This document shows positions 19,186-21,468 of a stretch of 21,468 nucleotides of DNA, piece after piece (the stretch's first letter is position 1; the number at the start of each line of letters is the position of its first letter). This DNA comes from a virus. Lineage: Duplodnaviria; Heunggongvirae; Uroviricota; Caudoviricetes. The notes under the pieces are model-generated. The model ran no database searches. It had not been told where the DNA came from and saw only the letters and a program-made list of their open reading frames with translations. The DNA lies in the IMG/VR virus record IMGVR_UViG_3300029058_000046; one strand, given 5' to 3'. Made by a program: the position numbers and the translations under genes.

Positions 19186-19386
19186 ATGAATGCACAGGCT
19201 GATGTGCCGCAACTACAGTAGTGCGCGCTTTGCGGGGCTTGCTACAACCCTGTGTCGGAGTTCAGCACCGACCATCACAATAGCTGGAGAGTAGGGAGCA
19301 TGGTGCTCAAGCGGTCTTGAAAACCGTCCCATTGCGCAAGCGATGATGGTTCGATTTGAAGTGGTCAACAAAAACTGGCCACCGAG

Positions 19387-20283
19387 TTAGAGTTTTTTCC
19401 AGTATCGATTTTCCGATTCGTTTGGTGGTAACCCACCATTATATTCGTGCGGTCTTAGTGCGCTGTAATATCCAACGATATAGTCCGTTATTGCGTGAGC
19501 TGCATCGCTGAAGCTTACATAGCCCGTCGCCGGCACCCATTCGTTCTTCAGACTCCTGAAGAAGCGCTCCATTGGGCTGTTATCCCAGCAGTTTCCACGC
19601 CGACTCATACTCTGCCTGATCCGGTATCTCCACAGTAACTGCCGGAACTGCCTGCTCGTATAATGACTGCCTTGATCGCTGTGGAACATCACCCCGACGG
19701 GCTTACCACGGGTTTCCCATGCCATTTCCAGTGCTTTCATGGTAAGCCTGCTGTCCGGCGAGAACGACATGGCCCAGCCCACTGGTTTTCTTGCGAACAG
19801 GTCGAGAACAACGGCGAGGTACGCCCAGCGCTTACCCGTCCAGATATAGGTCACATCACCGCACCACACCTGATTTGGCTCGGTCACGGCGAACTGCCGT
19901 TCAAGGTAGTTAGGGATAGCAACATGTTCATGACCACCACGTTTATACCGGTAAGTCGGCTGCTGACAGCTGACCAGCCCCAGCTCTTTCATGAGTCTGC
20001 CAGCAAGCCAGCGCCCCATCTGGTAGCCTCTCTGGGTTGCCATTGTGGCGATGCTTCTTGCTCCGGCAGAGCCGTGGCTGATGCCATGCAGTTCAAGTAC
20101 CTGGCTGCGTAATACAGCCCGTCTGCCGTCTGGCTTTTCAGGACGGTTTTTCCAGTATTTGTAGCTGCTGCGATGGACCCCGAACACATGGCAGAGAGTG
20201 GCCACAGGATAACGCGCCCTGAGTTTCCCGATTATCGAGAACTGTTCAGGGAGTCTGACATCAAGAGCGCGGTAGCCTTTTTT
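19387..20283 (-). CDS. IS911 OrfB (DDE integrase-type catalytic domain), expressed as the OrfAB fusion by -1 frameshifting
   Basis: The -1 frame downstream of the slippery heptamer reads ...[35 protein letters not shown]..., continuous with the 272-aa ORF. DDE-type integrase core. Confidence 0.85.
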
Positions 20284-20534
20284 AATATTTCATTTTCCAT
20301 TTCAATACGTTGTAGCTTTTTCCTGAGCTCACGGATTTCAATTTGTTCCGGGGTAATGGGGGAGGCTTTTGGTGTTTTTCCCTGCCGCTCATCACGTAAT
20401 TGTTTCACCCATCGCGTCATTGTGGAAAGGCCGACATCCATAGCGCTGGCTGCATCTGCCACGGTGTAATTCTGGTCAACGACCAGTTGAGCGGATTCGC
20501 GTTTAAACTCTGCGCTGAAATTTCTTTTTTTCAT
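20232..20534 (-). CDS. IS911 OrfA (helix-turn-helix plus leucine zipper transposase regulator, 100 aa)
   Basis: Starts at MKKRNF; the ORF-track extension to 20570 is upstream of the likely start. Ends ...MSDSLNSSR. Confidence 0.9.
20277..20283 (-). promoter_or_regulatory. Programmed -1 ribosomal frameshift heptamer A-AAA-AAG of IS911
   Basis: Plus strand has ccTTTTTTaa at 20276-20285; on the minus strand this is TTA-AAA-AAG in the orfA frame near its 3' end. Confidence 0.7.
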
Positions 20535-20606
20535 TATGGCACCTGTGTTGTTCTGAGGTGAGCATATCACCTCTGTTCAGGTGGCCAAATTCAGTAAACC
20601 ACTTCA

Positions 20607-21318
20607 CACAAAAGAAATTGCGGCAATGCTCAATGGATACATAGACGAGGGCAAGGCGGCGTCAGCCAAGTTAATCAGATCAACACTGAGCGATGCATTC
20701 CGAGAGGCAATAGCTGAAGGCCATATAACAACAAACCCTGTCGCTGCCACTCGCGCAGCAAAATCAGAGGTAAGGAGATCAAGACTTACGGCTGACGAAT
20801 ACCTGAAAATTTATCAAGCAGCAGAATCATCACCATGTTGGCTCAGACTTGCAATGGAACTGGCTGTTGTTACCGGGCAACGAGTTGGTGATTTATGCGA
20901 AATGAAGTGGTCTGATATCGTAGATGGATATCTTTATGTCGAGCAAAGCAAAACAGGCGTAAAAATTGCCATCCCAACAGTATTGCATGTTGATGCTCTC
21001 GGAATATCAATGAAGGAAACACTTGATAAATGCAAAGAGATTCTTGGCGGAGAAACCATAATTGCATCTACTCGTCGCGAACCGCTTTCATCCGGCACAG
21101 TATCAAGGTATTTTATGCGCGCACGAAAAGCATCAGGTCTTTCCTTCGAAGGGGATCCGCCTACCTTTCACGAGTTGCGCAGTTTGTCTGCAAGACTCTA
21201 TGAGAAGCAGATAAGCGATAAGTTTGCTCAACATCTTCTCGGGCATAAGTCGGACACCATGGCATCACAGTATCGTGATGACAGAGGCAGGGAGTGGGAC
21301 AAAATTGAAATCAAATAA
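20607..21318 (+). pseudogene. int: 3' fragment of a lambda-type tyrosine integrase gene (about residues 111-356), cut off at its 5' end by IS911
   Basis: Translation from TKEIAAMLNGYIDEGKAASAK to ...HKSDTMASQYRDDRGREWDKIEIK matches the recalled phage lambda Int C-terminus, including the catalytic tyrosine region. The track's ORF start at 20581 lies inside the IS911 terminal repeat. Confidence 0.9.
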
Positions 21319-21391
21319 TGATTTTATTTTGACTGATAGTGACCTGTTCGTTGCAACAAATTGATAAGCAATGCTTTTTTATAATGCCAAC

Positions 21392-21406
21392 TTAGTATAA
21401 AAAAGC
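21392..21406 (-). other. Lambda-type att core (GCTTTTTTATACTAA on the minus strand) within attL; P' arm spans ~21319-21391, host attB-side DNA from 21407
   Basis: The segment from the int stop to the core is the reverse complement of the recalled lambda P' arm. Beyond the core the sequence is the attB-side GAAGCCTGC flank, not the phage P arm. Confidence 0.85.
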
Positions 21407-21468
21407 AGGCTTCAACGGATTCATTTTTCTATTTCATAGCCCGGAGCAACCTGTGAACACATTTTCAG

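Follow-up and report, generated by a model that had tools for sequence, protein, structure and literature searches.

The virus record IMGVR_UViG_3300029058_000046, a stretch of 21,468 nt that we refer to as a whole as the window (coordinates are window positions unless another locus is named), carries a complete insertion sequence (IS) of the IS911 type standing between DNA from two replicons. Its three blocks are phage-plasmid DNA at 2-19356, the IS at 19357-20606, and a lambda-type integrase remnant (int') with attL and adjoining chromosomal DNA at 20607-21468. At and around the two junctions, the features are as follows, with the right and left terminal inverted repeats of the IS given as IRR and IRL:

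19286..19356, + strand: 5' 71 nt of a tRNA-Ser(UGA) gene with the last 16 nt gone (comparison with the intact gene of pM160133_p3)
19357..20606, - strand: complete IS911-type (ISEc52) IS of the IS3 family, 1250 bp (ends, open reading frames (ORFs), Pfam, identical copies); IRR at 19357-19383, IRL at 20580-20606
19387-20205, - strand: orfB (Pfam rve DDE domain, E=1e-31)
20232-20534, - strand: orfA, 100 aa (Pfam HTH_Tnp_1, E=6e-14)
20277-20283, - strand: A6G (AAAAAAG) frameshift heptamer for -1 slippage (read from the sequence)
20607..21318, + strand: lambda-type integrase pseudogene (int'), residues 1-120 gone (lambda Int comparison; Pfam Phage_integrase, E=1e-40)
21319..21391, no strand: P' arm of attL (part of the match to lambda 27724-28523; lambda int-binding site annotations)
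21392..21406, no strand: 15-bp lambda att core TTAGTATAAAAAAGC (the lambda match stops exactly here)
21407..21468, + strand: chromosomal B arm and the first 16 nt of ybhC, which starts at 21453 (chromosome identity)

An IS911-type element without a target duplication

The IS runs from TGAAGTGG... at 19357 to ...CCACTTCA at 20606, with TG...CA termini and imperfect terminal inverted repeats of 27 nt that are 78% complementary. These ends, together with orfA and orfB, bear out its description in the initial annotation as a complete element of 1250 bp with both terminal repeats. The name IS911 used there holds in the sense of an IS911-type element (InsN/InsO for the same proteins in some sources), and PGAP labels it 'IS3-like element ISEc52 family' and its transposase 'frameshifted'; the naming, taken from these annotation labels, is ambiguous. 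In length, termini, imperfect repeats, orfA/orfB organization and the A6G -1 site it is the same as IS911/ISEc52, elements of the IS3 family that move by copy-out/paste-in, and it is otherwise a standard transposable element, with no new device in the window. Copies identical over 1250/1250 nt were found in loci L001, L067, L102, L103, L148 and L149, and all copies examined are identical or one base apart. When a junction query, half of it IS end, was compared with two chromosomes that bear the IS-int' scar described below, it matched 7 and 9 places, and the IS is multi-copy in these hosts.

The window copy differs from other IS911/ISEc52 elements in having no target duplication and in having flanks from two replicons. 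It is bounded by ...ggttcgATT on the left and CACaaaag on the right, without any 3- or 4-bp repeat, as had been claimed. Identical copies elsewhere, delimited at the same boundaries, have perfect 3-bp duplications (gat/gat in strain H105 and cct/cct inside cbrB in isolate AB66), so that the boundaries are right and the missing duplication is real; a 3-bp repeat that might have come to light on correcting the boundaries did not emerge. The 3-bp duplication that is a feature of the IS911/ISEc52 type is therefore present at the control copies and lacking here (ATT versus CAC), and while the element belongs to this type, the window copy is no simple insertion. Its two flanks have separate histories, which explains the missing duplication: the IS is a recombination joint, and ATT/CAC are a true hybrid pair.

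We considered an ordinary single insertion in which the duplication was mutated away or the boundaries were misread, which has its a priori possibility in its favour and nothing more, and regard it as extremely improbable. Two different replicons supplied the flanks; past the left flank, the intact tRNA-Ser gene goes on as ccattactc, and intact int at the right-flank position reads ...gacatcac followed by cacaaaag. These two continuations and the control copies refute both a decayed duplication and wrong boundaries.

The right junction is an inherited scar at lambda attB

Aligned to lambda int/attP, the right flank from the IS to the att core (20607-21406) matches lambda 28523-27724 with 99.6% identity (3 mismatches), and the match stops exactly at the core. 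On the E. coli attB side, the B arm and the start of ybhC are 100% identical to the chromosomes NZ_AP027217.1 and NZ_CP172871.1, in which ybhC is annotated, and E. coli genomes without attL match only from 21388/21392 onward. These alignments agree with the initial annotation in placing an intact P' arm, core and host attB-side DNA to the right of int', but the breakpoint in int, which it had put at about codon 111, lies at 120/121 in the lambda alignment, with Thr121 as the first whole codon. Of 5,426 complete E. coli genomes, 1,919 have a lambda-type attL (P'-core-B), and in the others the site is empty or has another occupant.

The remaining 236 residues of int' (234/237 aa identical to lambda Int 121-356, the differences being H164P, A245V and I248V) keep all of the catalytic residues R212, K235, H308, R311, H333 and Y342. 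The pseudogene retains the catalytic domain and has lost the arm-binding domain along with part of the core-binding domain, and PGAP describes the same int' in locus L001 as 'incomplete, missing N-terminus'. No xis gene was found in the window. Lacking an arm-binding domain, a start and xis, int' is unable to act; it is a dead gene, and the attL is not resolvable by its own enzymes. Exact-protein look-ups of the 245-aa and 230-aa int' products matched only chromosomal or short contigs.

We found the exact IS-int' junction in two complete E. coli chromosomes, JNE170426 and 23-AB02114, and the same IS next to an int' that is shorter by another 141 nt in three more (Ec40743, PM22 and LR-51, also complete). 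In all five chromosomes the IS is identical to that of the window over 1250/1250 nt, and to its left lies the late region of a P22-like prophage, cut at a place that varies by lineage. In JNE170426 the portal gene is intact; the truncated gene is gp10 in 23-AB02114, the capsid gene in Ec40743 and the needle-knob gene in LR-51. The five chromosomes have four different left flanks and two right flanks, with flank triplets gaa/cac, tca/cac, att/cgc and ggc/cgc and a duplication in none. Three more variants come from draft genomes; one keeps a partial IS (nt 841-1250), and two lack the IS and are joined at the same position of int. In the first of these drafts (L242 9572-10843) only the last 410 nt of the IS are left. 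One of the IS-less joints (L243 ~6500-6560) reads gp10'...cagttca followed by cacaaaag, with a 4-nt TTCA microhomology to the IS end, and the other (L244 ~4040-4100) reads scaffold'...gttgc-tga-aaaagaaatt.

This series represents nested IS-adjacent deletions eroding a P22-like prophage at lambda attB, a locus that keeps rearranging. The IS in the int gene of the prophage has deleted adjacent DNA repeatedly, each deletion taking any target duplication with it. The right junction of the window (IS, int codon 121, attL, ybhC) is an old inherited chromosomal scar, and therefore no matching duplication is expected, whatever stands on the left. Stepwise adjacent deletions by an IS3-family element (IS150) and IS-IS recombination are documented causes of lost duplications (PMC11708052).

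A further rearrangement at this site was seen in strain CUPF12 (L002, NZ_CP182159.1, 5588-8392), where the same IS (1 SNP), flanked by ccc/gtt, connects emrE, which belongs to the DLP12 prophage, with the xis/int genes of the lambda attB prophage. This joint implies a large IS-mediated rearrangement between two prophage sites.

The left junction lies inside a phage-plasmid tRNA gene

To the left of the IS, positions 2-19356 are collinear with SSU5-like phage-plasmids of E. coli at 99.97-100% identity, namely pM160133_p3 (NZ_CP022167.1), NZ_CP080257.1 and CP057685.1, with about 100% identity to pM160133_p3 from base 2 on. Identity is 95-96% to phages Cyrano and CMS-2020a and about 81% to Salmonella phage SSU5. 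The SSU5-like hallmark set (tail fibre, ParA, DnaB-like helicase, primase, ligase and tRNA cluster) is present and collinear, and both the Pfam domains and this identity support the earlier description of a non-lambda module with ParA, DnaB-like helicase, primase and ligase.

The left break, attributed in the initial annotation to a hairpin/tRNA region, is indeed in the tRNA region and can be refined to a position inside the tRNA-Ser(UGA) gene. Intact, this gene of 87 nt is the fourth tRNA of pM160133_p3 (L003 25281-25367, ARAGORN); the match of the window stops at L003 25351, in the T-loop and 16 nt short of the 3' end. The uninterrupted pM160133_p3 sequence at the break reads ...ggttcgatt followed by ccattactctccgcc, and the side to the right of the break includes ccattactctccgccagacac. 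All 34 IMG/VR relatives with DNA from immediately right of the break have the gene intact, and in the window the break inactivates it. Integrase-mediated integration at the tRNA, which a break in the T-loop might bring to mind, is ruled out, as the partner is an IS terminus and not an att site; the phage-plasmid's own integrase gene also sits beyond the break, which contradicts this route as well.

The left junction, at which the IRR end of the IS abuts SSU5-like DNA broken in tRNA-Ser, is a different and much rarer event than the deletions on the right. We found no tRNA-Ser-IS junction in 5,426 complete E. coli genomes, in 72,556 plasmids, in the GTDB representative genomes or in the JGI metagenome set. 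Its sole other carrier is the independently catalogued IMG/VR contig IMGVR_UViG_3300028988_000004 (19,493 bp), which breaks off 96 nt into the IS; across the 11.8 kb compared, its identity to the window is 100%. Two variants set the window apart from every other relative compared and are common only to it and this contig, a run of A8 (not A4) at 18623-18630 and a T for G at 18741 in the D arm of tRNA-Asn. This contig carries the same left junction, which is thus reproducible. From the metagenome of this contig, IMG/VR holds no sequence right of the break, no integrase region of the phage-plasmid and, among the best 80 relatives, no terminase, and no other piece of the phage-plasmid was recovered, which hints that the metagenome holds only a non-autonomous phage-plasmid fragment. 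Exact-protein look-ups of the partial tail fibre and of a 52-aa ORF spanning the junction returned no record.

Replicon fusion or chimeric assembly

Among complete genomes, the helicase-primase module of the phage-plasmid was found at 256 plasmid and 3 chromosomal places (259 in total). Because phage-plasmid DNA is normally a separate replicon, as these counts show, deletion alone cannot bring the left flank beside int', and this flank needs either replicon fusion or an assembly error. The initial annotation had proposed IS-mediated deletion, cointegrate formation between two IS copies, or a chimeric assembly; all three are still live, and deletion has gained a documented history for the right flank but fails as the only cause of the left one.

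We give a real IS-mediated fusion of phage-plasmid DNA with the chromosome about an even chance. An IS copy would have inserted into the phage-plasmid tRNA-Ser by copy-out/paste-in, with ATT as its target. After this, either a RecA-dependent crossover with the copy that stands beside int' in the chromosome or a transposase-driven replicon fusion through an IS dimer, in one step, would have produced the joint. A later IS-adjacent deletion may have trimmed the phage-plasmid DNA to a fragment. The outcome would be a set of partition and replication genes anchored in the chromosome beside the gal-side attL. In support of a fusion, the same IS copy demonstrably rearranges its own surroundings, as the deletion series shows. 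The reciprocal junction (the IRL end of the IS, 0-6 nt including ATT, then ccattactctcc) gave 0 matches in the viral, metagenome and genome collections, and since a simple insertion in tRNA-Ser requires this junction, its absence is a point for fusion.

Several observations weigh against a fusion, and most of them favour instead a chimeric contig, in which an assembler threaded collapsed identical IS copies and joined the wrong exits. The sample would then have held an autonomous phage-plasmid (or a plasmid with a piece of one) bearing an ordinary ISEc52 insertion in tRNA-Ser, and a separate chromosome with the IS-int' scar. We rate this as a substantial possibility, if somewhat short of an even one. 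Each half exists alone: the right junction in chromosomes with P22-like genes to its left, and the left junction in the contig that stops 96 nt into the IS, which for that reason offers no independent view of what lies beyond. Integrated and non-integrated states share the same four half-junctions, and the window therefore cannot prove that both flanks touch one IS copy. Likewise, only one of the two junctions predicted for a cointegrate is in hand, its reciprocal having been found nowhere. The IS copies are multi-copy in scar hosts, nearly identical and indistinguishable, and form a repeat of 1.25 kb that would exceed the read or insert length; IS-private SNPs that would have let an assembler cross faithfully are ruled out, as the other copies are identical. 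At least 16 isolate draft assemblies break a contig at this IS. A chromosomal location of the replication module is rare (3/259), the phage-plasmid being extrachromosomal in about 99% of complete genomes.

The contig ends may point the same way. The window ends 77 nt past 21392, the first base common to attL and empty attB and thus the branch point between them, and metagenome NODE contigs of about 894 bp cover int'-attL from 55 nt inside the IS to 55 nt past 21392, so that the chromosomal part of the window looks like a short graph edge. This is suggestive of a short-read contig from a k=77 de Bruijn graph of mixed E. coli, and such a graph does not reliably cross a repeat of 1.25 kb. We only infer k=77, as both k=77 (SPAdes) and k=79 (MEGAHIT-like) suit the right end, which also falls exactly 150 nt beyond the stop codon of int, and no single k accounts for the left end of the window and the ends of the IMG/VR contig (96 nt into the IS and 41 nt left of base 1). 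Other points speak against a chimera: assemblers normally halt at such repeats rather than choose a wrong exit, the reciprocal IS-ATT-plasmid junction needed for a simple insertion is absent from all collections searched, and the rest of the phage-plasmid was not recovered from the sole metagenome with the left junction. Both a fusion and a chimera predict the same half-junctions, so that the sequence by itself cannot choose between them.

The whole window might also be plasmid-borne, if an IS-mediated fusion was followed by an imprecise exit that carried IS-int'-attL-ybhC away, in the manner of an F-prime or a specialised transducing genome. The junction anatomy would be identical to that of a chromosomal fusion, nothing in the window separates the two locations, and hybrid plasmids bearing pieces of the phage-plasmid exist, 64 conjugative or mobilizable plasmids being among the matches. 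We nevertheless consider this quite improbable, as none of the 72,556 plasmids carries either junction together with the other side, and the attL-ybhC segment is on plasmids in just 15 of 5,458 places.

A chromosome-size contig with DNA of the same phage-plasmid lineage was found in GCA_019584725.1 (VCZV01000001.1, 4.89 Mb; L011 1-12736 and L232), which holds at least 23 kb at 99.98% identity. Its joint falls at window position 18538, at a Tn1721-type 38-bp inverted repeat (GGGGGAACCGCAGAATTCGG...) beyond which come REP-type naRNA4 repeats and clpB. The contig may show a further capture through a transposon, or it may be misjoined; it is a possible precedent for the capture of phage-plasmid DNA by a transposable element.

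Comparison with related systems

Plasmids can integrate through shared IS copies in the Hfr manner or as cointegrates, as in the F plasmid with IS2 and IS3, and replicons can fuse through IS dimers. Like the window, this model predicts plasmid DNA, an IS and chromosomal DNA in a row with hybrid flanks. It differs in that a cointegrate should have two directly repeated IS copies and ATT at both plasmid ends, whereas the window shows one junction and one IS copy, and in that the partner here is a phage-plasmid and not a conjugative plasmid. In an analogous way, an SSU5-type phage-plasmid, or a replication-proficient part of it, might be stably integrated through the IS beside the gal-side lambda attL, although we regard such a state as unlikely. 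If it were true, induction or in-situ replication and packaging could amplify and transduce the adjacent chromosomal genes on the ybhC-gal side, and a phage without integrase-directed integration would have gained, by way of an IS, a route to lateral or specialised transduction. If the fusion is real, an integrated intact copy could, speculatively, mobilise neighbouring chromosomal DNA.

The right flank has its closest parallel in the IS150 adjacent deletions of the Lenski long-term lines, where the IS likewise stays in place, neighbouring DNA is lost stepwise and the duplication vanishes (PMC11708052). At the window's IS locus, four left and two right breakpoints surround one IS copy in natural isolates rather than laboratory lines, and the lambda attB deletion series is a clean natural counterpart of the IS3-family adjacent deletions seen in laboratory evolution. 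Unlike in the IS150 series, the left flank in the window is the DNA of another replicon and not a deeper prophage deletion, so that an extra fusion step or an assembly error is needed.

Chromosomal phage-plasmid remnants 'captured by recombination not directed by integrases' have been reported, in a survey that describes seven such regions of the P1 and pKpn types and none of the SSU5 type (PMC12977533). If the linkage in the window is real, it has in common with them phage-plasmid DNA in a chromosome without a dedicated integrase, and differs in that the capture joint (the IS) and the chromosomal site (a prophage remnant at lambda attB) are both defined. It would then be a defined and rare case of chromosomal capture of an SSU5-type phage-plasmid in E. 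coli, in which one active IS copy both erodes a resident prophage and recruits the DNA of another replicon. If the linkage is not real, the window is a warning that short-read contigs can mimic integration at an IS. In both cases the phenomenon belongs to a well-known kind.

Other features of the phage-plasmid block

The SSU5-like phage-plasmids pM160133_p3, Cyrano, CMS-2020a, SSU5 and those of the pECOH89 type are all collinear with 2-19356, but in every such relative examined an intact tRNA-Ser is followed by the glutaredoxin, integrase and CobT genes, whereas in the window the tRNA is cut and the IS follows. A complete SSU5-like element has about 110 kb and includes a structural gene module; the window holds 19.4 kb of the phage-plasmid, in which we annotated the following features:

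1..2868, + strand: 3' part of the tail-fibre gene (Pfam Phage_fiber_2, Gp34_trimer, Peptidase_S74)
7066..7734, + strand: ParA-type partition ATPase (Pfam AAA_31, MipZ, CbiA, ParA; AAA family ATPase in the annotation of the pM160133_p3 locus, L003)
9980..11320, + strand: DnaB-like replicative helicase (Pfam DnaB_C; annotation of a relative)
11330..12583, + strand: DNA primase with Toprim domain (Pfam DNAG_N, Toprim_2; PGAP 'DNA primase')
15803..17125, + strand: ATP-dependent DNA ligase (Pfam DNA_ligase_A_M; annotation of a relative)
18719..18965, + strand: tRNA-Asn(GTT), tRNA-Tyr(GTA) and tRNA-Thr(TGT) cluster (ARAGORN; Rfam tRNA)

An Rfam scan of 17900-21468 found the three tRNAs of the cluster and nothing else. 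Around and between the tRNA genes lies a family of long hairpins (18327-18448, 18974-19049 and 19104-19188, and also 18167-18255) that share CACAAC... / ...GTTGTG feet and have no match in Rfam. In the closest relative, pM160133_p3, a different IS3-family element without nucleotide similarity to the window's IS is present (L117 6434-7647), apparently in the tape-measure region.

At the left end of the window, the first ~958 nt of the tail-fibre part are a module common to unrelated phages at about 96% identity. Base 1 of the window is A, as in the unrelated phages whose tail-fibre genes share 1-958 at that identity; pM160133_p3 and the IMG/VR contig, otherwise identical, have G there. The difference could be a private SNP, or it could hint at another recombination joint at the left end of the phage-plasmid segment.

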